A stretch of DNA of 64,000 nt, taken from positions 606 to 64,605 of the forward strand of contig CAZIJW010000016.1 in assembly GCA_964539905.1 (NCBI GenBank), written 5' to 3'. A model generated the notes under the pieces. It made no database searches. It was not told where the DNA came from and saw only the letters and a list, made by a program, of their open reading frames with translations. This document shows positions 2,728 to 63,417 of this stretch, piece after piece. The stretch's first letter is position 1, and each line of letters begins with the position of its first letter. The stretch comes from an uncultured Robiginitalea sp. (GTDB lineage: Bacteria; Bacteroidota; Bacteroidia; Flavobacteriales; Flavobacteriaceae). Made by a program: the position numbers and the translations under genes.

Positions 2728-5700
2728 TCGCGGTAGACTTTATAGGTGGTTTCCCTGCCCTTCTGGGTGACCCGCAACAGGTACAGGCCTGTGGGTAATG
2801 CCCCAAGCTCCAGGCGTACCCTCGCGTCCGAGTCGGGCAGGCGTCGACCCTTCCAGACCAGTGCGCCGGCAGCGTTGAAAACCGCAATATCCACAGGTCC
2901 ATCGGGCCTGGGGACAATGAGTTCCAGGGCTTCGGTAAAAGGGTTGGGCGATAGCAGGGGTTGATCGGCCCGAAGGAATTCCGCTTCATAAGATCCCCTG
3001 CAGGCGGGAATACCTTCTACCCTTAGCTGGTTGAACCCCTTTTCCAGTTCCAGGGTAAACACCGGACCCTTAACCGTCCGGGAGTTGCCATTGAGGGTTA
3101 CTTCAAACAATTCCGCCCCGTCGAGCAGCAGTTCCACCGAGGAGTAGTCCGGGGCGGCAAAGGCCTGCACGCTCAACGGATCAGGGCTGCCGATGACTAC
3201 CTGGAAACACTGGGGCTCATATGCGTTGGCCCCGTCGCTGCCCCCGAGGCACACCTCGTAGGATCCCGGGCGCAGCCCCTCAACGTCGTAGGTGGTGGTG
3301 AAGCCCTCCGACAGGTTGGTGCCGTTGCCCGTTACCGCTATACTATAGTCAAAGGATTGAGAAGCGGTTACCGCTATAGAACCATCGCCTGCCCCGATAC
3401 AGCTTTCCGTCGACACCAAAATTTCAAACCGGTCCGATGGGAAGCGCAGTACCTCACAGCCATTGGCGTCCACCTCAGCCCCGGGGGGCGTGCCCGGGCA
3501 CAGGTCGTCGCCGTCATCGAAAACCCCATCGCCATCCTCGTCGGGCCTGAAGGCGCCTTCCACGCATAATTCAAGGGAAAAGCCCAGGAGTTGCCCCCCG
3601 TCATTGTCGGCCCCGTCTTCGATGGTGAGGACCCATTCCCCAAAACTGGATTCCCCCACAAAGGAATTCAGGGAACCCGAGGGCCTTACGGTCCCGGAAA
3701 TAGCGGGGTTGTTGGCACATACGAAAGGGGGTGCCTCTGAGTCGAAGGTGGCATTGATGTCGTTGGCCTCCCCACAGGCGTTCGAGACAAGGGTCACACG
3801 GGTCCCCTGGGGGGAGGTCAGGCTGATCACGAGGTCGGCCAGGTAGCTGTGGGTGAGTTCGAGGTTCACCTTCACCCCTAACAGGGGCCGGTTGTCGGGG
3901 ATGGTCAGGGAGGCGGTCACCGTTGGCGTACCCGTGGCCGGGATCGGTACCGGCAGGCCTGAGGCAGTGAGGGTTTTGCAATCGGACTGCAAGGTGCTGA
4001 AACTGAACGGGGTGCCGAAAACCCCTTCGCCGCAGGCGTTCAGGGGCCTGATCCTCCAGAAATACACCGTGTTTTCCTGCAGCCGTCCCGGCGCATAACT
4101 CGTAGTGTAAACGCGCTGGCTGGCGATCGGGCTGGCAAATGTAGGCTCTGTGGCCAGTTCCAGGTCATAGGCGGTATACTCCGTTGCCCCTTCCCACTCA
4201 AGCAGCGGAAAGAGCCCCACTTCCTCGGCCGCATCCGCCGGGGAAAGCAGCGTTGCCGGCCGGAAAGCCCCGCTGCCCAGGCGCACTTCCAAAGGGACCG
4301 ATACCGTTGTAACCCCGTCGATTCCGATAACTTCGAACGGATAGGTTCCCGCAGGCACGGAGTCGGTATTGCTCAGGGTGAGGCGTAACCGGGTGTCATC
4401 GACCTGCACGGTATCTACGGAAAAGGTTGCCTGAAGGCCTTCCGGAAGGCCGGTAACGCCGAGGGCCACAGGCTCCTCAAAGCCCCCGAAGGTCTGGTAG
4501 GTAAAATCGAAGACGGCATCTGAAGGCTGGCAGGCCTGGGCCTGCAGGGCATCGAAATACAGGAGGAACGGCCGTTCGGCGATTTCGAAATCCGTACTAT
4601 TCAGCGCAAAGAAAATATTATCCGCTGCCCGGACCACAAACCGCCCGGAGGGGGTGGGCACCCTGGGGATTTGCACGCGGGCCGATCCGGTATTCGGAAG
4701 GTTGGAAGCGATCTTCAGGGGGAAGCTCAGCCCTCCGTCAGCGGACAGGTAGAGGTCCACCAACTGGGCATTGATGGGGGCGCCACCGGTGCCGGCCACA
4801 TCCCAGGATACCTCCTGCACGCTCCCCATTTCGAATGTTTCCGCCTGCGATTGGGAGAGCACCCGGAACGGGCCCGCATCTTCCCTGACGGTAACGGTCG
4901 ACACTTCAGAGGTGACCTGCCCGCCCCCGGGGGCATTGTCGCGGACCGTCAGTGCAAAATTCAGCTCCCTCCCAATGGTGGCGACCGTTTCCCATGCCGT
5001 TCCCGGCAGGGGGTCGGTCTGGGTGAGGTTGCCCGAGGCCACCCGGCTGAGCAGGGGGAAAAACCGCCTGGGCTCCGTCACGGGCCTGCGCGAGCGAAAA
5101 TTTGCCCCCGCCGGATTCTCCGGGCCAAAAGAGTCCCGGGTGACGACGCCGTCATCGATCTGCTCCCAGGCATAGGTAAGGACGTCTGTCGGGTTGGCAT
5201 CCGTGGCGGCCCCTTCCAGGACGAAAGCCGTCCCCCGGGGGATCACAAAATCGGGGACCGGGGTGATCACCGGGGGGGTATTGGCCAGGGGGGTCAGGGC
5301 CGCACAACTGGTGCCCGAAACGTACTGGCTGATCTGCAAGATGCTGTAATAATGGAAATAATCATCGCCCACCGATTGCACATCGTCATTTTGGGTGATC
5401 CCGGCATACCCCATGATGGTGGACCCGCTGCCTGGCTCGGCCTGTACCCCCGTGCCCTCCGACTGAAACGACCAGGTGTGGTTCGCCCCCAGCTGGTGGC
5501 CCATTTCATGGGCGACAAAGTCGAGGTCGAACCGGTCCCCTTCGGGCGTTACGTTCCGGGCAAAGGCACTTCCCTTGCGGCCATCGACGCAGACCGATCC
5601 GATAAAGCCGGCATTCCCGGAGTCGCCCCCCTGGTCGAAGAGGTGGCCGAGGTCATACTCCGGGGCCCCGATGAGGGAGTCCAGTGCCTGTTGTACCTCG

Positions 5701-6512
5701 CTGTTGGGGCTGGATTCAAATGGGTCCGTTTCCGGGTCCGTAAAAATGACCCGGTCATTATCGGGGACGAGTTCCAGGGCTATGGCGAGGTCCCGCTCAA
5801 AGACTTCATTGACCCGGGTCAGGGTGGCATTGATGGCGGCAAGGGCATCTGCTACCGTACCCCCGTGGTATTGTGTGTACTCGCCGCTGGCGGCAATGGC
5901 CACGCGGTACCGCCTGAGCTGCTGGTCGTCCACCAGTTGCGCCGCAGTGGCCGGGGGGAGGTCCTTGCCGGTTTCTGAGGGCGTCTTGCACTTCCACCCC
6001 TGTTCTGTGGGTTGGAGGGCTGACCGGGCGAACAAGAGGTAGGTGCCCGGCCGGTCCGGGTCCTTTTCCAAATACAGGGTCTGGTTTTCGGAGGGGTCAG
6101 TTACGGTGGCCTGCAGCCCCTTGTGTGAGAAACTGAACCGGACCCGGGCCGGGTTGCCCTCCATCCCGTACCCGATAAAGGAACGGATGCCCGGGTACCG
6201 CCGCTGGAGCTCAGGGGCCATCACCGGGTTCTCCCGAACCCGATAGTTTTGCAGCCTTCCGGAGGCATCGGGGAAAGACAGGACCACTTCACCCATCCCA
6301 CCGGGTGGAAGGGCTTCGAGTTGTCTGCGGAAAGGCGTTTCACTGAGCACGAACGCCTGGGCCGACCGGGGCTTGAGGACCCGGCCGGAAAGGGTGGGAC
6401 GGGCCTGTACCTGGACACTGTTTTCCCAATAGATACCGGTCTGTTGGGCGCTCAAAGATAAACAGGCAAAAAGTAAGGGAATTGAAAGAACAAGACGTAA
6501 CTTTGTCTTCAT
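2724..6512 (-). CDS. Reprolysin-like (M12B) zinc metalloprotease with proprotein convertase P-domain, TSP3 Ca-binding repeat and T9SS C-terminal sorting domain
   Basis: Signal peptide MKTKLRLVLSIPLLFACLSLSA at ATG 6512; HEMGHQLGANH zincin motif with GSTIMGY Met-turn; P-domain (HSYLADLVISLTSPQGT); DEDGDGVFDDGDDLCPGTP; CTD (SPNPF...LPTGLYLLRV). Confidence 0.9.
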   Translation of the reverse strand: MKTKLRLVLSIPLLFACLSLSAQQTGIYWENSVQVQARPTLSGRVLKPRSAQAFVLSETPFRRQLEALPPGGMGEVVLSFPDASGRLQNYRVRENPVMAPELQRRYPGIRSFIGYGMEGNPARVRFSFSHKGLQATVTDPSENQTLYLEKDPDRPGTYLLFARSALQPTEQGWKCKTPSETGKDLPPATAAQLVDDQQLRRYRVAIAASGEYTQYHGGTVADALAAINATLTRVNEVFERDLAIALELVPDNDRVIFTDPETDPFESSPNSEVQQALDSLIGAPEYDLGHLFDQGGDSGNAGFIGSVCVDGRKGSAFARNVTPEGDRFDLDFVAHEMGHQLGANHTWSFQSEGTGVQAEPGSGSTIMGYAGITQNDDVQSVGDDYFHYYSILQISQYVSGTSCAALTPLANTPPVITPVPDFVIPRGTAFVLEGAATDANPTDVLTYAWEQIDDGVVTRDSFGPENPAGANFRSRRPVTEPRRFFPLLSRVASGNLTQTDPLPGTAWETVATIGRELNFALTVRDNAPGGGQVTSEVSTVTVREDAGPFRVLSQSQAETFEMGSVQEVSWDVAGTGGAPINAQLVDLYLSADGGLSFPLKIASNLPNTGSARVQIPRVPTPSGRFVVRAADNIFFALNSTDFEIAERPFLLYFDALQAQACQPSDAVFDFTYQTFGGFEEPVALGVTGLPEGLQATFSVDTVQVDDTRLRLTLSNTDSVPAGTYPFEVIGIDGVTTVSVPLEVRLGSGAFRPATLLSPADAAEEVGLFPLLEWEGATEYTAYDLELATEPTFASPIASQRVYTTSYAPGRLQENTVYFWRIRPLNACGEGVFGTPFSFSTLQSDCKTLTASGLPVPIPATGTPTVTASLTIPDNRPLLGVKVNLELTHSYLADLVISLTSPQGTRVTLVSNACGEANDINATFDSEAPPFVCANNPAISGTVRPSGSLNSFVGESSFGEWVLTIEDGADNDGGQLLGFSLELCVEGAFRPDEDGDGVFDDGDDLCPGTPPGAEVDANGCEVLRFPSDRFEILVSTESCIGAGDGSIAVTASQSFDYSIAVTGNGTNLSEGFTTTYDVEGLRPGSYEVCLGGSDGANAYEPQCFQVVIGSPDPLSVQAFAAPDYSSVELLLDGAELFEVTLNGNSRTVKGPVFTLELEKGFNQLRVEGIPACRGSYEAEFLRADQPLLSPNPFTEALELIVPRPDGPVDIAVFNAAGALVWKGRRLPDSDARVRLELGALPTGLYLLRVTQKGRETTYKVYRE

Positions 6513-55742: not shown

Positions 55743-56690
55743 ATGCCAAAAAAAATATTGATCCTGGGAGCCTGCGGGCAGATCGGGACCGAGTTGACGC
55801 TCGCCCTGCGCGCCCGCTACGGGGCGGAATCCGTTATCGCCACGGACCTCAGGGAAGGGCAGGGGGAATTAATGGCCTCCGGCCCGTTTTCGCTCCTGGA
55901 TGCCACGGATTTCAAGGCGGTGGAAAAAATCATTCAGGACCATAAGGTGGAGGAGGTTTACCTTATGGCCGCCATGCTGAGCGCCACAGCCGAGCAATCC
56001 CCCTCCAAAGCATGGGAACTCAACATGAATTCCCTCTTCCATGTGCTGGAACTCGCCAGGCAGCAGCAATTCGGAAAACTCTTCTGGCCTTCGAGCATTG
56101 CAGTCTTTGGCCCCACCACCCCTAAGGACAATACCCCCCAGCACACCATTGCCGAACCCACCACAGTTTACGGGATCAGCAAACTGGCGGGGGAAGGGTG
56201 GTGTTCCTACTACCACCGAAAACACGGCGTGGATGTGCGGAGCCTGCGCTATCCGGGGCTGATCAGCTGGAAGGCTGAACCGGGAGGGGGCACCACCGAC
56301 TACGCCGTCGAAATCTACCACGAGGCCCTCGCCAGGGGGCAATACGAATGTTTCCTCCGGGAGGATACCCGGCTGCCCATGATGTATATGGAGGATGCCA
56401 TCCGCGCCACGCTGGAACTGATGGAAGCCCCTTCTGATCAGGTAACCATCCGCAACTCCTACAACCTGGGGGCCATGAGCTTCACCCCGGCAGAGATGGC
56501 CGAAAGCATCAGGGAGCACCTTCCCGGTTTTCGCATCGGGTATAAGCCCGACTTCCGCCAGGAAATTGCAGCATCCTGGCCCGAGCGCATCGACGACAGC
56601 AAGGCCAGGGAAGACTGGGGCTGGGAACCCCGCTACACCCTGCAGGACACCACCCGTGAAATGCTCACCCGGCTACGGGATCGCCTCTAA
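55743..56690 (+). CDS. L-threonine 3-dehydrogenase (SDR/GalE-like type)
   Basis: [37 protein letters not shown]. Confidence 0.85.
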
Positions 56691-58075
56691 AGCTCGATCG
56701 CCTTTTTGGGGTGGTATTTCAGTTTTTTCTCGATGGTGGTAATCATGGTATTGGCGATATCCTTGCCGGTGGCATTCTCGATTCCCTCCAGGCCCGGTGA
56801 AGAATTGACCTCCAGCAGCAAGGGGCCCCTGTTGGAGCGGATGATATCGACCCCGGCCACGGAAAGGTTCAGCACCTTGGCCGCCTTGATGGCGAGCTTG
56901 CGCTCCTCTGAAGTAATCTTTACCATGGAGGCCCTGCCCCCCTGATGGATATTTGCCCTGAATTCGCCTTTTTCGGCCTGGCGCTGCATGCTGGCCACTA
57001 CCTTGCCGTCGATCACAAAGCAGCGGATATCCTGGCCGTTCGCCTCCTTGATGAACTCCTGGACCAGGATGTTGGTCTGCACACTTTTAAAGGCGTTGAT
57101 AACGCTCTCGGCTGCCTTGTTCGTCTCGGCGAGTACCACGCCTTTCCCCTGGGTACTCTCCAGCAATTTGATGATCAGGGGGGCCCCGTTCACCATTTTG
57201 ATCAGGTCCCTGGTATCGTTGGGCGATTTGGCAAACCCGGTAATGGGGATATGGATGTCGTGGCGGGCAAACAACTGGGAAGCGAAGAGCTTGTCGCGCG
57301 ACTGGGTGATGGCCTCCGCCGAATTAAGGCAATACACCCCAAGGTAGTCGAACTGCCGGATAAGGGCACAGCCGTAAAACGTCACCGAGGGCCGGATCCT
57401 GGGGATGATGGCGTCGAATTCATTGAGGATGTTCCCACCGCGGTAGCGGATTTCAGGGGAATTGGCATCCAGTTTCATATAGGCCAGTTCCACATTGAGG
57501 AAGACGATCTCGTGGCCCCGGTCCTGGGCGGCTTCCATAATCCGCCGGTTGCTGTACAGGTGGGGGTTGCTCGCCAGCAAGGCAATTTTCAACCCCGATT
57601 TCTTGTGGATGTAGGATGCATAAAGTTGCTCCAGCCTGTCGGCAGTGAAATCCCCGGCCAGCAGGTTTTGCCCGGGGTCGACCAGATAACGCCCCGAGAG
57701 GGCTTCCCGCCCCAGGAGCATGCGGAACTCCATGGTGTCGCGGCTGGCCAGGGTAAGTTCGATATCAAATTTGTCGGGCCCAAGCCTTACCGGGGTTTTG
57801 ACCACCAGCCGCTCTTCGGAGATCCCCGAGGAACTCTTTACGATCCGCCGGTCGATCAGCCGGGCTTCGCAATGGACGGTAATACTGCGGTTTTCCTGTA
57901 GGGGGTGGACGTCAAACTGCACCCATTCCTCCCCATGCCGCATCACGATCTTGGTGTTGGCCGCCTGGATGGAAGAGGTCTTGGCTCCGGAATCGACCCG
58001 CGCCTTGATGGCAGGGATACCCATTTCTTCGAACACGCACCATTCCTCGCTCCCAAGTAGTTTTTGTTCCTTCAT
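56687..58075 (-). CDS. rimK: RimK ATP-grasp glutamate ligase fused to an N-terminal retropepsin-like (RimB-like) protease domain
   Basis: N-terminal [24 protein letters not shown]; Rim[48 protein letters not shown]. Confidence 0.9.
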
Positions 58076-58123: not shown

Positions 58124-58549
58124 TTATTCCTCAACGGCCCGAAACGTATCGCCGGGGTCCAGAAAGTGTTTGAACTCCACCATGTACCCGTTCGGGTCTT
58201 CCACAAAAAAGGAGCGATGGGCCCCGGGTTTTCCCGAAAGGAACAGGCTGTTTACAGGAAGTTCCAGGGAAAGGCCTTGCAGCCGGCCCAGGAGGGATTC
58301 CCAGTCGGTACTGCCTACCAGGACCCCGAAGTGGAACGCCGGCAAAACTGCCTCTTCAAACTTGTACGATTTGTACTGGAAGCTGAATACGCCGCTTTTG
58401 GTAAAGGTAATCTGGTTCCCATACAGGTTGATGTCCACCCATTGGGTGGTGCTCCTTCCCACCGAGGCCCCCAGGGTTCCCGTGTAGAAGGCGTGGGTGG
58501 CGGAAACGCTGATACAGGGCAGGGACAAATGAAAAGGGGCCTGTTGCAT
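58124..58549 (-). CDS. VOC/glyoxalase family protein
   Basis: FHLSLP, FYTGTLG, FHFG, FFVEDPNGYMVEFK. Confidence 0.85.
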   Translation of the reverse strand: MQQAPFHLSLPCISVSATHAFYTGTLGASVGRSTTQWVDINLYGNQITFTKSGVFSFQYKSYKFEEAVLPAFHFGVLVGSTDWESLLGRLQGLSLELPVNSLFLSGKPGAHRSFFVEDPNGYMVEFKHFLDPGDTFRAVEE

Positions 58550-58567: not shown

Positions 58568-58867
58568 TTATTCTTCGTCCTCGTCCATCTCTATGTCGGG
58601 GATGGCGGTGGGGTCATCTGAGTCGTAATCTTCATAGTCCTCTTCATCGTAATTGGCCATGGTTTTTTCCAGTTTGGCACTGATTTTCACCAGGTATTTG
58701 GTGTCGTCGGTGGAAACCTCGACCGCCTCGATGAGTTCCCCCTGAGCATTCCTGAACGTAATGATGTGGCCATCGTCATAGCCGTCGGGATACCGCTCCA
58801 CGAGGAGCTTGAGCACCTCCGGGGTAAGTTTTCTAAAGTCCACGATAACGCGCCTCAGGTTGTCCAT
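58568..58867 (-). CDS. Small acidic hypothetical protein ending ...DEDEE
   Basis: RVIVDFRKLT..L.LL..RYPDGY globular part plus D/E-rich tail; starts 2 nt after the DHS stop. Confidence 0.75.
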   Translation of the reverse strand: MDNLRRVIVDFRKLTPEVLKLLVERYPDGYDDGHIITFRNAQGELIEAVEVSTDDTKYLVKISAKLEKTMANYDEEDYEDYDSDDPTAIPDIEMDEDEE

Positions 58868-58869
58868 GA

Positions 58870-59844
58870 TTACAGGTTTAAAAGATACGCAAAAATTAAT
58901 GGGGCAACAATGGTGGCATCGCTTTCAATGATGAACTTGGGCGTATCTATCCCCAGTTTGCCCCAGGTGATTTTTTCATTCGGAACGGCCCCCGAATAGG
59001 AACCAAAACTGGTGGTACTGTCGCTGATCTGGCAAAAATAGCTCCAGAAAGGGGTGTCGGTGCGTTCCAGGTCCTGATAGAGCATAGGCACCACGCAGAT
59101 GGGGAAATCGCCGGCAATGCCCCCGCCGATCTGGAAAAACCCGATGCCCTTGCCGGAATTTTCGGTATACCAGTCGGCCAGGTAGGTCATGTACTCAATC
59201 CCTGATTTCATCGTCTGGGCCGAGAGTTCCCCTTTGATGACGTAGGAGGCGAAGATGTTTCCCATGGTGCTGTCTTCCCAGCCCGGGCAAACCAGGGGCA
59301 GGTTTTTTTCGGCCGCAGCATACATCCAGGAATCCCGGATATCGATCTCGTAATACTCCTCCAGCACCCCGGAAAGCAGCATTTTGTACATGAATTCATG
59401 CGGGAAATAGCGCTCCCCGGCGGCTTCGGCCTCTTTCCAGAGCCGGAAGATATGTTTCTGCAGGCGACGGAAGGCCTCCTCCTCGGGGATGCAGGTGTCC
59501 GTCACACGGTTCAGGCCGCTTTCCAGCAGGTCCCACTCATCCTGGGGGGTGAGGTCCCGGTAGTTGGGCACCCGTTTGTAATGCGAGTGGGCGACCAGGT
59601 TCATGATATCTTCCTCCAGGTTCGCCCCCGTACAGGAAATGATATGCACCTTGTCTTGCCGGATGATCTCGGCAAAAATCTTCCCCAGCTCGGCAGTACT
59701 CATGGCCCCGGCAAGGCTCACCAGCATTTTGGAACCCTGCTCCAGCTGGGCTTCGTACCCCCTGGCTGCATCCACCAGGGCCGCTGCATTGAAGTGTTTG
59801 TAATACTTGGCAATAAAATTGGATATCGGTCCTTTAGAGCTCAT
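58870..59844 (-). CDS. Deoxyhypusine synthase-like protein (probable homospermidine synthase)
   Basis: LAGAMSTAELG, CTGANLEED, NRVTDT, GGGIAGDF, SYSGAVPNEKITWGK, SDAT. Confidence 0.88.
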   Translation of the reverse strand: MSSKGPISNFIAKYYKHFNAAALVDAARGYEAQLEQGSKMLVSLAGAMSTAELGKIFAEIIRQDKVHIISCTGANLEEDIMNLVAHSHYKRVPNYRDLTPQDEWDLLESGLNRVTDTCIPEEEAFRRLQKHIFRLWKEAEAAGERYFPHEFMYKMLLSGVLEEYYEIDIRDSWMYAAAEKNLPLVCPGWEDSTMGNIFASYVIKGELSAQTMKSGIEYMTYLADWYTENSGKGIGFFQIGGGIAGDFPICVVPMLYQDLERTDTPFWSYFCQISDSTTSFGSYSGAVPNEKITWGKLGIDTPKFIIESDATIVAPLIFAYLLNL

Positions 59845-60778
59845 CATCATCAAATTTTGAGGACAGGTTGTTTTTCCAGCCGCCTTCCTCATCAAAGGGT
59901 TCATCAAAATCGCCCTCCTGGGCGGTTTCCATAAATTTATACGTCAGCATTTTATAATACAGCTTGGCCGCCACGAAATCGGAGGCGCGGTTCTGTGGGT
60001 TCGGGCACAATTCCACCAGGTCAAAACCGACCACATTTTTCTCCTGGAAAACCTTGCGGAGGAATTCCAGGGTTTCGTACCAGAATAGCCCCCCCGGTTC
60101 CGGGGTGCCTGTGGAGGGCATGATGGACGGGTCGAGGGCATCCAGGTCGAAGGTAATAAAAACATGGTCAGTCATCAGGTCGATGACCTTATCCATCCAG
60201 AATTCATCGGCCGCCATCTCATGGGCAAAGAACACCCTTTCCGGATCCATATAGGTCTTTTCAATGGCATCCATGCTGCGGATGCCCACCTGGATCAGGT
60301 TGGTGGTCTGCGAAGCCTCGTGTACGGCGCAGGCGTGGTTATAGGGGGTGCCGAGGTACGACTTCCGCAAATCGGCATGGGCATCGATCTGCAATACGGT
60401 AAGGTTGTCGAAGCATTCGTTGAACGCCCGGATGGAACCAATGGAAATAGAATGTTCGCCCCCGAAAAGGGTTACAAACTTATTCCGTTTGATGTAGTCC
60501 TTGGTAATTTGATGGACCTCCTTCACCACCGCTTCAGGGCTGTCTTTTTCCGAAATGGCAGGCGCAAGGTAAATCCCCTGCCGGTAAACCTCCGTTCCGG
60601 TTTCAATGTCGTAAAGCTCCATGTTTTCCGACGCCGCGAGGAACGCCCCGGGGCCTTTGTCTGCACCTTTGCCCCAGGTGCTGGTACCGTCGTAGGGCAC
60701 GGGGATCAGGACTACCCGTGCTTTTTCCAGCTGCGCGAACTCCTCAGGGATTCCCGCATAGGTTGGCATACTTTTCAT
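59834..60778 (-). CDS. speB: Agmatinase
   Basis: PYDGTSTW..G..GP, GGEHSIS, DAHAD, DLDALDP, TGTPEPGG. Confidence 0.95.
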   Translation of the reverse strand: MKSMPTYAGIPEEFAQLEKARVVLIPVPYDGTSTWGKGADKGPGAFLAASENMELYDIETGTEVYRQGIYLAPAISEKDSPEAVVKEVHQITKDYIKRNKFVTLFGGEHSISIGSIRAFNECFDNLTVLQIDAHADLRKSYLGTPYNHACAVHEASQTTNLIQVGIRSMDAIEKTYMDPERVFFAHEMAADEFWMDKVIDLMTDHVFITFDLDALDPSIMPSTGTPEPGGLFWYETLEFLRKVFQEKNVVGFDLVELCPNPQNRASDFVAAKLYYKMLTYKFMETAQEGDFDEPFDEEGGWKNNLSSKFDDDEL

Positions 60779-62253
60779 TCTTTGTGGATTTCTTCTTTGG
60801 TTGCGTATTCGTGTTGGTGATCTCCTAATTCCTCCTGCGTGCCGGAATCCTGCCCTTCGGTTCCATAGCCCAGGATCCTCAGGTACTCCCCGGCCTCCTG
60901 CTGCTCCCGGAAAAGCGTAACCATCAGGTGGCCTTCCCCATCCCGGTCGATGAGCAGGTGCTTCGGATAGGGAATCAGGCAGTGCTGCAAGCCCCCATAT
61001 CCCCCAATGGTCTCCTGGTAGGCCCCGGTATTGAAAAACCCGATATAGAGCGGTTTTTCCGAATGGAATTTCGGCAGGTAAATGGCGTTCATGTCCTGCT
61101 GGCTGTTGTAATAATCGTCGCTGTCGCAGGTGAGCCCCCCCAGCAACACCCGTTCATAGGGGTCGTTCCAGCGGTTGATGGGCAGCATGATAAAACGTTT
61201 GTTGATGGCCCACGAGTCGGGCAGGGTGGTAATGAACGAGGAGTCGATCATATTCCATTTCTCCCGGTCGTTTTGTTGTTTCTGGTAGAGGACCTGATAG
61301 ATGGCCCCGCCGCTTTCCCCAACCGTGAAGCTCCCGAATTCTGTAAAAATATGGGGCACGGGCACATCGGCCTCCTTGCAGGCCAGGTTGATCTGGTTCA
61401 CGATCTCGTCGACCATGTATTCGTAATCGTATTCAAAGGCCAGGGAATTCTTCGTGGGAAAGCCCCCTCCTATGTTGAGGCTGTCGAGGGAAGGGCAAAT
61501 CTTTTTAAGCCGGACATAGACCTTGAGGCATTTTGACAATTCGTTCCAGTAATAGGCATTGTCCCGCATCCCGGTATTGATGAAGAAATGGAGCATGCGC
61601 AGCTCAACCTTGTCATTGTCCTTGATCTGGTTTTCGTAAAAGGGCACAATGTCCTTATACCCGATGCCAAGGCGCGAGGTGTAGAACTCGAATTTGGGTT
61701 CCTCTTCGGAGGCGATGCGGATGCCCACCTTGAAATTTTCCTCGATTTCTTCCGTGAGCAGCGACAACTCCTCGTAGTTGTCGATAATAGGGATGCAGTT
61801 GCGCTGCCCGTTATTGATCAGGCGGGCGATGTTCTCTATGTACGCAGCCCTTTTGAACCCATTGCAAATGACGTAGGTGTCGTCCTTGATCTTTCCTTCC
61901 TTTTTAAGGCGTTCCACGATGGGGATGTCGAAGGCCGAGGACGTTTCGATGTGGATGTCATTTTTCAGGGCCTCGTGCAGCACATACCGGAAATGGGAGC
62001 TTTTGGTACAATAGCAGTAGTAGTACTTCCCACTGTACTGGTGCTTTTCCATGGCCGCGGCGAACCACTTCTTGGCCAGGCCGATATTTTGGGAAATCTT
62101 CGGCAGGTAGGTGAATTTCAAAGGGCTCCCGTATTTTTCCACCAGTTCCATCAGGGGGATCCCATGGAAAAGGAGGTGGGAATTATCAAGGGTGAATTCC
62201 TCAGTGGGGAAATAATAAGTCTGATCGATCAGATCGCGGTAGGTAATGTTCAT
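60775..62253 (-). CDS. speA: Arginine decarboxylase (fold-type III PLP, Bacteroidota short form)
   Basis: YCTKSSHF PLP-Lys motif, SKFGL-equivalent SRLGI, NIGGGF, EFG..TVG, TCDSD, GAYQE. Confidence 0.9.
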   Translation of the reverse strand: MNITYRDLIDQTYYFPTEEFTLDNSHLLFHGIPLMELVEKYGSPLKFTYLPKISQNIGLAKKWFAAAMEKHQYSGKYYYCYCTKSSHFRYVLHEALKNDIHIETSSAFDIPIVERLKKEGKIKDDTYVICNGFKRAAYIENIARLINNGQRNCIPIIDNYEELSLLTEEIEENFKVGIRIASEEEPKFEFYTSRLGIGYKDIVPFYENQIKDNDKVELRMLHFFINTGMRDNAYYWNELSKCLKVYVRLKKICPSLDSLNIGGGFPTKNSLAFEYDYEYMVDEIVNQINLACKEADVPVPHIFTEFGSFTVGESGGAIYQVLYQKQQNDREKWNMIDSSFITTLPDSWAINKRFIMLPINRWNDPYERVLLGGLTCDSDDYYNSQQDMNAIYLPKFHSEKPLYIGFFNTGAYQETIGGYGGLQHCLIPYPKHLLIDRDGEGHLMVTLFREQQEAGEYLRILGYGTEGQDSGTQEELGDHQHEYATKEEIHKE

Positions 62254-62310
62254 CGAAATATTTTTTCAGAAATAGCGCCTGTGGCAAGCCCGGACAGGAA
62301 AACCCGGGGA

Positions 62311-62496
62311 CTACCTCATACTGCAAGATAAGAAACAAGAATTAGACGGGATGGGCGGTACTCCCTCATCCGCCCGGGAAACAGGCGGTTTGTGGAGGAT
62401 AGGAGCTAACGTTAATTTCCGGTTACCTGATCGAAAGGCCGCTGCCTGGCATAACTCCCTGTATCCCGGCAACCCGAACATAAAAACACTTTTCAT
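62311..62496 (-). CDS. Putative leader peptide (uORF) of the speA operon, 61 aa (79 aa from the alternative ATG at 62550)
   Basis: Open frame MKSVFMFGLPGY...LAPILHKPPV...VPPIPSNSCFLSCSMR ending 57 nt before the speA ATG; A-rich start context; atypical codons. Confidence 0.5.
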   Translation of the reverse strand: MKSVFMFGLPGYRELCQAAAFRSGNRKLTLAPILHKPPVSRADEGVPPIPSNSCFLSCSMR

Positions 62497-62709
62497 TATG
62501 TTCTTCAGGGAACCGTATACATCGCGGTTCACCGGTGTAAATGAAAACATTTTTTTTTAAAAAAATCCTATTTTGAAAAAAAAGTTGCCTATTTGCCGGA
62601 GTTCATAAAATTCGGGGCTTCCCGACCTCCTACCGCCGTTTTATCGTCGGTTTATCCGCCGAATTCCGTACCTTGTTTGCCGTTGTGAATCCCTTAGCCC
62701 AGAGAACGG

Positions 62710-63417
62710 ATGAAACGAATGTATCAAACCTTCCTTTTGCTGCTGCTCCCCTGCCTCCTCGGTGCCCAGATCGCCCCGGGGGTTTACCTGGCCACGGAAC
62801 CCCTCGATGGGGGAAAACGGAACTACCTGCTCCTGGTGGCCGATTCCTACCTGGTGCATACCGTATATGATTCCAGCCCGGCCCATTTTATCCGTACTAT
62901 GGGAGGCTTTTACCAGGTGGAGGAAGACTCCCTGAAGGTGCAGCTTGAATTTAATTCGGACTTTGAAAAAACCGGGGAAAAGTCGCACCATGCATCGGTG
63001 AGTTATGCTGAAGGAAGCCTGATCTTCAATGGCAACATGGACCGGCCCTACACCCGGGAGCCGTCCATGGAACAACCCCTTGACGGGCAATGGCTGTTTG
63101 CCGCCCGCGGGCCGGATACCGGCCAGGAGCGCCGGGGGGACGGACAACCCCGGAAAACCCTGAAATTTTTGAAGGACGGGTATTTCCAGTGGATCGCCTA
63201 TAACACCGATACGATGGAATTCTTCGGCAGCGGAGGCGGGCGGTATGCGGCCGAAAACGGCTCGTATATCGAAGCCATCCAGTTTTTTTCCAGGGATGAT
63301 TCGCGGGTTGGGGCCGAGCTGGGTTTCCAGTTCGAAAGGAAAGGGAATGACTGGCACCATACCGGTAATAACAGCCGTGGGGAACCGCTCTACGAAATCT
63401 GGTCGCTCAGGGAGTAA
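62710..63417 (+). CDS. Secreted hypothetical protein (two lipocalin-like beta domains)
   Basis: Signal peptide; GG.Y repeated in both halves; RKTLK..DGYFQWIAY. Confidence 0.7.
   Translation: MKRMYQTFLLLLLPCLLGAQIAPGVYLATEPLDGGKRNYLLLVADSYLVHTVYDSSPAHFIRTMGGFYQVEEDSLKVQLEFNSDFEKTGEKSHHASVSYAEGSLIFNGNMDRPYTREPSMEQPLDGQWLFAARGPDTGQERRGDGQPRKTLKFLKDGYFQWIAYNTDTMEFFGSGGGRYAAENGSYIEAIQFFSRDDSRVGAELGFQFERKGNDWHHTGNNSRGEPLYEIWSLRE

Follow-up and report, generated by a model that had tools for sequence, protein, structure and literature searches.

An open reading frame superimposed on a pseudoknotted RNA: a candidate composite leader of the homospermidine operon speA-speB-speY in Flavobacteriaceae

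The window analyzed here, 64,000 nucleotides (nt) of contig CAZIJW010000016.1 from an uncultured population of Flavobacteriaceae (Robiginitalea sp., 58% GC), carries on its minus strand the operon speA-speB-speY (58870-62253), preceded by a small open reading frame (ORF) and a structured RNA domain that are the subject of this report. The operon encodes arginine decarboxylase (speA, 60775-62253; Pfam Orn_Arg_deC_N), a ureohydrolase of the arginase family (speB, 59834-60778; Pfam Arginase) and the deoxyhypusine synthase homologue SpeY (58870-59907; Pfam DS). In Winogradskyella algicola and other bacteria the same cluster converts two agmatines to N1,N9-bis(guanidino)homospermidine (G44G) and this to homospermidine, the arginase-family enzyme being a ureohydrolase specific for G44G (PMC13625781). 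Because the route runs through agmatine and G44G, the candidate signals for its control are arginine, agmatine, G44G and homospermidine. The speA and speB genes overlap by 4 nt (ATGA, 60775-60778), and the longest ORF for speY overlaps speB by 74 nt (59834-59907), although its true start is probably further downstream, where gene callers place it (326 amino acids).

Between speA and a divergent gene that begins at 62710 lie 456 nt, and in them the leader ORF (62311-62496, minus strand), which runs from an ATG at 62496 to a TAG at 62313-62311, encodes 61 amino acids (MKSVFMFGLPGYRELCQAAAFRSGNRKLTLAPILHKPPVSRADEGVPPIPSNSCFLSCSMR), and ends 57 nt before the speA start codon at 62253; a longer reading from an ATG at 62550 would give 79 amino acids. 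An initial annotation described this ORF as a candidate ribosome-stalling leader peptide, pointing to its two Pro-Pro motifs (KPPV and VPPIP), its rare leucine codons (TTA in 4 of 6, versus 3 of 140 in speA, speB, speY and rimK together), its arginine codons (AGG twice, CGG twice, CGA once, with neither CGC nor CGT) and its last codon, AGG, directly before the stop. All of these features are present in the sequence as described. Taken alone, the ORF would nonetheless appear to be no more than chance might provide, because ORFs of 30-120 amino acids are abundant in all frames of the window and the intergenic region as a whole folds no more stably than shuffled sequences (z = +0.45). A scan of the region for sigma-70 promoters and intrinsic terminators likewise gave counts not above those in shuffles. 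Its significance comes only from comparison with relatives.

For that comparison, 80 loci were fetched from species-representative genomes by their SpeA protein (all Flavobacteriaceae-like, SpeA 75-83% identical), and a scan of 185,579 species genomes with a degenerate DNA pattern added 120 more stretches. When the intergenic region and the peptide were used as queries for blastn and tblastn, matches in many genera fell at the same site, some 250 nt upstream of speA. Alignment reveals a conserved block of about 130 nt, preceded by a promoter-like box. A hidden Markov model of the block detects it in the window and in 45 of the 80 loci (46 of 81; nhmmer E = 3e-22 for the window); 97 of the 120 pattern-scan stretches carry it too. 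Its distance upstream of speA, on the same strand, is 125-280 nt in the 46 of the first 81 sequences and, wherever the flank is available, in about 95 of the 97 further matches. A covariance model built for the element finds a single copy in the whole window (62393-62522, minus strand, 91.8 bits) and no copy in those speA loci that lack the block. The 99 unique leaders from about 100 species-level genomes and metagenome-assembled genomes (MAGs) form the set for all counts of starts, lengths, stops, Pro-Pro motifs and peptide motifs given below. A homologous frame sits at the same site in all of them, and the conservation that the initial annotation had named as a check on its proposal is therefore present.

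The first constituent of the element is an RNA domain of about 110 nt, with five helices and a pseudoknot, that overlaps the first ~33 codons of the leader ORF. Helices were called with RNAalifold and manual inspection (alignment A2 columns: P1, 15-20/117-122; P2, 21-25/45-49; P2a, 50-51/106-107; P3, 52-60/76-84; P4, 86-90/99-103; and a pseudoknot between GGAAG in the P3 loop and CTTCC in the 3' tail). In the window, the P2 hairpin (62476-62503) pairs GAACA (62503-62499) with TGTTC (62480-62476) and holds the leader start codon in its loop; the minimum free energy fold lengthens it to 8 base pairs. The P3 hairpin (62441-62473) pairs 62473-62465 with 62449-62441, the P4 hairpin (62425-62439) pairs 62439-62435 with 62429-62425, and the pseudoknot joins GGGAG (62459-62455) to CTCCT (62401-62405). 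The 3' strand of the closing helix P1 (62406-62411) has 62509-62504 as its partner, mostly unpaired here in the register of the family. In a model-based alignment of 70 distinct sequences, pairing holds in 86.5% of cells, and compensatory changes occur in 26 of 32 base pairs; an alignment fitted to its own model leans towards structure, but an independent MAFFT alignment agrees. None of 500 shuffles matches these values, and when partners are slid by 1-3 columns pairing falls to 28-48%. Compensatory changes touch 5 of 6 pairs in P1, all 9 in P3 and all 5 in P4, and in the pseudoknot the outermost pair, formed by the first G of GGAAG and the final C of CTTCC (A4 columns 116:218), reads GC in 45 sequences and AU in 9. 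Many unpaired nucleotides are conserved as well. The domain has no match above noise in Rfam 15, SAM families included, at E<=10 for the window and E<=1 for eight relatives.

The second constituent is the reading frame. Read from the NTG codon aligned with the window's ATG at 62496, it stays open for 55-57 codons in all 46 aligned sequences, apart from the window (61), L042 (60) and L002, from Robiginitalea sediminis (79). Among the 99 leaders the length is 55-57 amino acids in 89, the stop is TGA in 82, and the last residue is Ile or Val in 90; the spacer to speA has no fixed length (-4 to 176 nt). Every leader has a valid start codon (TTG in 52, ATG in 40, GTG in 7); position -3 is A in 81 of them and position -6 in 82, and both are positive, Kozak-like determinants of initiation in Flavobacterium johnsoniae, a member of a phylum that does without Shine-Dalgarno sequences and tunes initiation by mRNA structure (PMC6847099). 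In-frame stops within the RNA core occur in 0 of 67 unique sequences, whereas column permutations that preserve base pairs predict them in 28 +/- 3.4 of 66 (minimum 19 in 1000 permutations), a large effect even though phylogeny is ignored; the other two frames contain stops in 67 and 60 of the 67. In 64 of 65 sequences, a nucleotide search blind to frame puts the motif F-[IV]-P-T-T at one of three distances from the start, 132, 135 or 138 nt, so that insertions and deletions come in multiples of three. Within the C-terminal motif S-Q-H-x-Y-[FG]-F-[IV]-P-T-T, entropy is 0-0.4 bits at codon positions 1 and 2 and 0.75-1.96 bits at position 3. Because this motif varies mainly at third positions, the family ORF appears to be translated, and with it the view of the initial annotation that a regulatory leader peptide precedes speA gains support both from the translation signature and from a position found only upstream of the speA-speB-speY operon. 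The half of the ORF that coincides with the RNA domain shows no codon periodicity; selection on amino acids would thus seem confined to the last ~15-20 residues, with the first 33 dictated by RNA pairing.

The promoter-like box bears on where the leader begins. In the window it reads TTCATTTA (62538-62545, minus strand; family consensus TTCATTTG or TAnnTTTG) and resembles the -7 element of Bacteroidetes promoters; it is kept at a fixed distance in relatives, where in 43 of the 99 its end falls 20-22 nt ahead of the leader start, and we treat it as a putative promoter. The 79-amino-acid version of the window ORF is unlikely, because its ATG at 62550 lies upstream of this putative promoter box and because in relatives the frame is cut off by an in-frame TAG a short way upstream of the homologous start.

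The C-terminal half of the peptide differs among clades, with length and ending retained. In the main clade (67 of the 99) it follows the pattern ..SQHxY[FG]F[IV]PTTxxQIx[IV]-stop; in Ulvibacter and Altibacter, ..QRxAYWLNPIRI-stop; and in Aquimarina, Kordia and Flagellimonas, ..F[VI]PxT[VI]xx[FI]RI-stop. Where the RNA domain is absent, speA loci have different leader ORFs that are likewise conserved. Flavobacterium-type loci (20 loci) have an ORF of about 58 amino acids that ends ..EKLQIIYANIRV-stop and shows clear codon periodicity, and Aequorivita-type loci (13 loci) have a 29-amino-acid ORF, MNNTFLLPTA..QQVSG....N.LPIRI-stop, in which codon periodicity is not clear. The former (L051, L065, L074, L075, L078, L258-L283) spans -235 to -55 relative to speA and has a hypervariable N-terminus rich in Lys, Asn and Ser; the latter (L027, L038, L046, L052, L056, L229-L280) spans -180 to -90, and its Pro and Ile codons are invariant at all three positions, so that part of its conservation may concern the nucleotides themselves. 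Leader peptides with the ending [IL]-R-[IV]-stop would appear to be a recurrent solution, a general theme in front of the speA operon, and this recurrence suggests that the peptide does work of its own and is not simply carried along with the RNA.

The conservation, the base-pair covariation, the translation signature and the exclusive linkage to speA are established by these comparisons, and from the aligned sequences we conclude with high confidence that the family is a translated, structured cis-regulatory leader. More specifically, we favor the reading (at a probability of roughly 60%) that it is a composite leader of the homospermidine operon (speA, speB/duh, speY), in which a translated upstream ORF (uORF) and a pseudoknotted RNA are superimposed. 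One layer would be the uORF (about 56 codons, 61 in the window), its last ~15-20 residues acting inside the ribosome exit tunnel; the other would be the ~110-nt RNA at the 5' end of the transcript, in which P1 encloses P2 and a three-way junction of P2a, P3 and P4, with the pseudoknot tying the P3 loop to the 3' tail. Folding of the RNA, possibly stabilized by a metabolite of the pathway, would limit initiation on the leader ORF, as may be expected because Bacteroidetes lack Shine-Dalgarno sequences and initiate in a structure-sensitive way. Ribosomes that do translate it would be slowed or arrested near the stop (mostly UGA) by the conserved C-terminal peptide, and their occupancy of the C-rich, G-poor 3' part of the leader would decide whether transcription or translation proceeds into speA. 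That the output would be attenuation, whether of the Rho type or dependent on a hairpin, in the manner of SpeFL and TnaC, is a guess. For this specific mechanism, a fold that gates initiation and a C-terminal arrest that controls read-through, our confidence is moderate to low. With covarying structure, a place in the 5' leader and linkage to the speA operon only, the domain has the generic sequence-level marks of a candidate riboswitch. It is tempting to go further and see in it a new riboswitch class for a metabolite of the path from agmatine through G44G to homospermidine (or for arginine), gating a new ligand-sensing arrest peptide, so that a leader with two sensors sets homospermidine synthesis in marine Flavobacteriaceae; we regard this extension as tentative, and rather doubtful as it stands.

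Several features of the sequence may bear on the output step. After the window ORF come hairpins (62267-62310, minus strand): CCCGG (62308-62304) pairs with CCGGG (62293-62289), and a terminator-like GCTTGCCACAGGC (62289-62277) is followed by GCTATTTCTG. In the family a hairpin usually begins about 23 nt past the stop (about 20-30 nt), and some genomes (L063, L064, L032) have a textbook terminator after the ORF; in L047 and L063 an arrangement of the 2:3 / 3:4 kind can be seen by eye. Both the spacer and the ORF's 3' half are rich in C and poor in G (C/G = 1.5; spacer 8.8% G), a composition compatible with a Rho entry site but no proof of one. A general antiterminator/terminator model was considered and is not supported, as no conserved alternative of terminator and antiterminator is found across the leaders.

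Several observations weigh against the composite reading and its proposed mechanism. About one leader in two begins with TTG, which is a weak start codon. A mini-hairpin, CARAT-N4-ATYTG(A), can form over the last five codons and the stop (78% of pairs formed across the family, versus 32-45% with partners slid; where position 3 is G, position 12 is C in 7 of 18 cases, versus 7 of 64 where it is A), and the ending Q-I-x-[IV]-TGA, together with the preference for TGA, may thus reflect RNA and not peptide in part; the window's 62311-62325 does not fit this hairpin. The hairpin after the ORF is weakly enriched, with 40% of leaders reaching p<=0.2 where chance gives 20%, and complementarity of upstream sequence to its 5' arm, as antiterminator pairing would need, is not enriched (10.3 versus 9.9 in shuffles). 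Finally, the window's own clade is irregular. The window and its nearest relatives (L219; L085, a Robiginitalea MAG; and L002) have C-termini that match neither each other nor the family motif, in L085 the start codon is gone, as are the 5' strands of P1 and P2, and the window copy may, to judge from these differences, work differently or be decaying.

Decay is the first alternative to be weighed: the element in the window's lineage could be a relic whose nucleotides are still recognizable although regulation has been lost. The C-terminal half of the window's peptide lacks the family motif, its 61 residues exceed the usual 55-57, and P1 has diverged in both the window and L219, being mostly unpaired in the window in the family register (a shifted pairing is possible there). 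The relatives deviate too, with C-termini that are long (~71-79 amino acids) and, in the case of L002, a frame that runs into speA. Against decay, the window keeps P2, P2a, P3 (8 of 9 pairs), P4 (4 of 5) and the pseudoknot, scores highly against the covariance model, and shares with L219 a pseudoknot of GGGAG with CTCC[TC] in place of the consensus GGAAG with CTTCC, a compensatory change. Its frame also aligns through the C-terminal half with L219 and L085, whose endings are alike (..SF[VI].EE[IV].RL[LI][FY][RK]S[LF]LFS....[IV]RL-stop). Four independent metagenome contigs share an identical speA, with leaders that differ by at most one substitution; genome and metagenome scans found no other relative above 83% SpeA identity. 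We consider a relic unlikely, if the most serious of the rivals. The window copy would appear to be a divergent member that has kept RNA core and frame, with P1 out of register and the C-terminal peptide changed, and our confidence that it still works by the proposed mechanism is moderate.

A second alternative is a pure structured RNA, either a riboswitch or a protein-binding leader, whose open frame is an untranslated by-product of nucleotide conservation. The strong covariation, the pseudoknot, the many conserved unpaired nucleotides, the lack of codon periodicity in the N-terminal half and the abundance of TTG starts would all suit it. It does not account for variation confined to third positions in the C-terminal motif, for length steps of three, for in-frame stops in none of the core sequences where permutation predicts them in some two-fifths, for a valid start in 99 of 99 leaders, or for leader ORFs in relatives that have no such RNA, and it must be judged improbable.

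The mechanism put forward in the initial annotation, stalling at Pro-Pro motifs dependent on EF-P (or at rare leucine or arginine codons), with no role for RNA structure, fares worse still. The codons and motifs of the window listed above speak for it, and L219 has GPPY at the first Pro-Pro position. As a property of the family, however, Pro-Pro stalling fails: only 4 of the 99 leaders have such a motif (two of them variants from the window population), at positions that do not align and never within the conserved C-terminal motif, and in the nearest relatives VPPIP is replaced by QRLIY or CRLLF and KPPV by GPPY (L219) or SAPV. The TTA codons lie in stretches conserved as RNA (the P3 loop, the 3' strand of the junction and P1 (J/P1), and the T-rich 3' part); since the leader is also low in GC (47%, versus 58% in the window), no explanation based on codons is needed. 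Arginine codons offer no better signal: the window ORF has none in tandem, no leader has three in a row, 4 of the 99 have two, and the mean of 3.1 per peptide are scattered and dictated by the RNA. What stands of the attenuator interpretation is therefore its leader peptide, while the Pro-Pro, EF-P and rare-codon mechanism does not, and the RNA domain overlapped by the first half of the ORF had escaped notice. We hold stalling of this kind to be very improbable. Least probable of all is an independent gene for a ~56-amino-acid protein acting in trans (for example, as an enzyme modulator) and co-transcribed with speA: the translation signature, the conserved length and the database entries (among 5.8 billion clustered proteins the leader peptide has been called as a gene just five times, in unnamed clusters of "hypothetical protein") would allow it, but amino-acid selection is limited to the C-terminal residues, Pfam-A and NCBIfam hold no family at E<=1 for five representative peptides, C-termini are swapped wholesale among clades at constant position and length, and the ORF has decayed in L137, where the operon is deleted.

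Among known systems, the element resembles several in function but, judging by these comparisons, belongs to none of their families. The mgtA leader is a Mg2+ riboswitch that contains the ORF mgtL, whose proline codons serve as the signal. There, as proposed here, a structured sensing RNA and a translated ORF share one 5' leader, and RNA folding and ribosome position are read together; there is no homology, however, and the prolines of the present leader are not conserved. Eukaryotic uORFs, namely the AdoMetDC MAGDIS uORF, the AZIN1 uCC and the fungal arginine attenuator peptide, respond to polyamines or arginine and stall at or near termination. They too place genes of polyamine and arginine pathways under nascent-peptide control, but they rely on scanning and reinitiation and have no sequence relationship to the leaders here, and the PPW/eIF5A logic is inapplicable because Pro-Pro is not conserved. 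SpeFL (orf34, the speF leader of gamma-proteobacteria) is likewise a short ORF directly upstream of a polyamine decarboxylase operon, with a conserved, aromatic-rich C-terminal part for which action at the stop codon has been proposed, a small (pause) hairpin that takes in the ORF's 3' end, and C-rich sequence after it (10.1101/604074). It differs in lacking any sequence similarity (HIRRXXH, as the regular expression H[IVL]RR..H, occurs in 0 of 99 leaders), in having 34 codons ahead of speF where the present family has ~56 ahead of speA in another phylum, and in that half of the ORF here doubles as a pseudoknotted RNA. TnaC, leader peptide of the tna operon, resembles the mechanism proposed here: its conserved residues work within the exit tunnel, and translation is arrested at a UGA stop (PMC8450073; TGA in 82 of our 99); the peptide is unrelated, the tna operon is catabolic and the present one biosynthetic, and the RNA domain is additional. 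The spermidine riboswitch, a close variant of the SAM-I aptamer (PMC10853860), is a cis-regulatory RNA tied to polyamine metabolism, but the present domain matches no Rfam family, SAM included, and overlaps an ORF. A classical attenuator of the trp/his type would call for a run of regulatory arginine codons, and the leaders have none (three in a row in no leader, two in 4 of 99).

Polyamine sensing in bacteria is largely unexplained, the main cases being SpeFL (for ornithine) and the rare spermidine riboswitch derived from SAM-I. The paper on the SpeY route to homospermidine, which was defined recently, does not treat its regulation (PMC13625781), and we found no description of that regulation in the literature covered. 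Nor did we find, in a literature search of incomplete coverage and hence as absence of evidence only, any description of a speA leader or RNA motif, of a polyamine riboswitch in Bacteroidota, or of the peptide motifs. The leader defined here in ~100 species-level genomes and MAGs is widespread and unannotated in an ecologically dominant marine family. It can be recognized by simple sequence rules (a start codon within a pseudoknotted fold, a frame of ~56 codons, a conserved C-terminal motif and a UGA stop), and it would offer a rare example of one sequence selected at once for RNA pairing and for an open reading frame.

Several loci are of interest in their own right. Every locus of the element for which a taxonomic family is named is Flavobacteriaceae except contig L094, labelled as a Campylobacterales MAG; its speA is typical of Flavobacteriaceae (76% identical) and is accompanied by the leader element, so that the contig is probably mis-binned. 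A Saonia MAG (L137, 6138-6394) keeps the leader but lacks speA-speB-speY; the motif has a Pro-to-Leu change, the ORF extends to 76 amino acids, and the next gene encodes the acidic protein of ~100 amino acids that follows speY in the window. This looks like a deletion of the operon after which the leader decayed. Kordia sp. L095 has two RNA/ORF copies back to back, at 5575-5686 (minus) and 5917-6031 (plus): one precedes speA, and the other, with a diverged C-terminus (..ILKHIDTTVVVIYIRA-stop), faces a putative secreted protein of 100 amino acids. In the window, an ORF of 69 amino acids antisense to the leader (62351-62560, plus strand) mirrors the conserved element, and nothing points to a gene. 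On the other side of the operon, three minus-strand genes come after speY and may belong to the same transcription unit: a very acidic conserved protein of 99 amino acids without a Pfam family (58568-58867; MDNLRRVIVDFRKLTPEVLKLLVERYPDGYDD..), a 141-amino-acid protein without a family (58124-58549), and a RimK-type ATP-grasp ligase that carries a fused Zn_protease domain (56687-58075).

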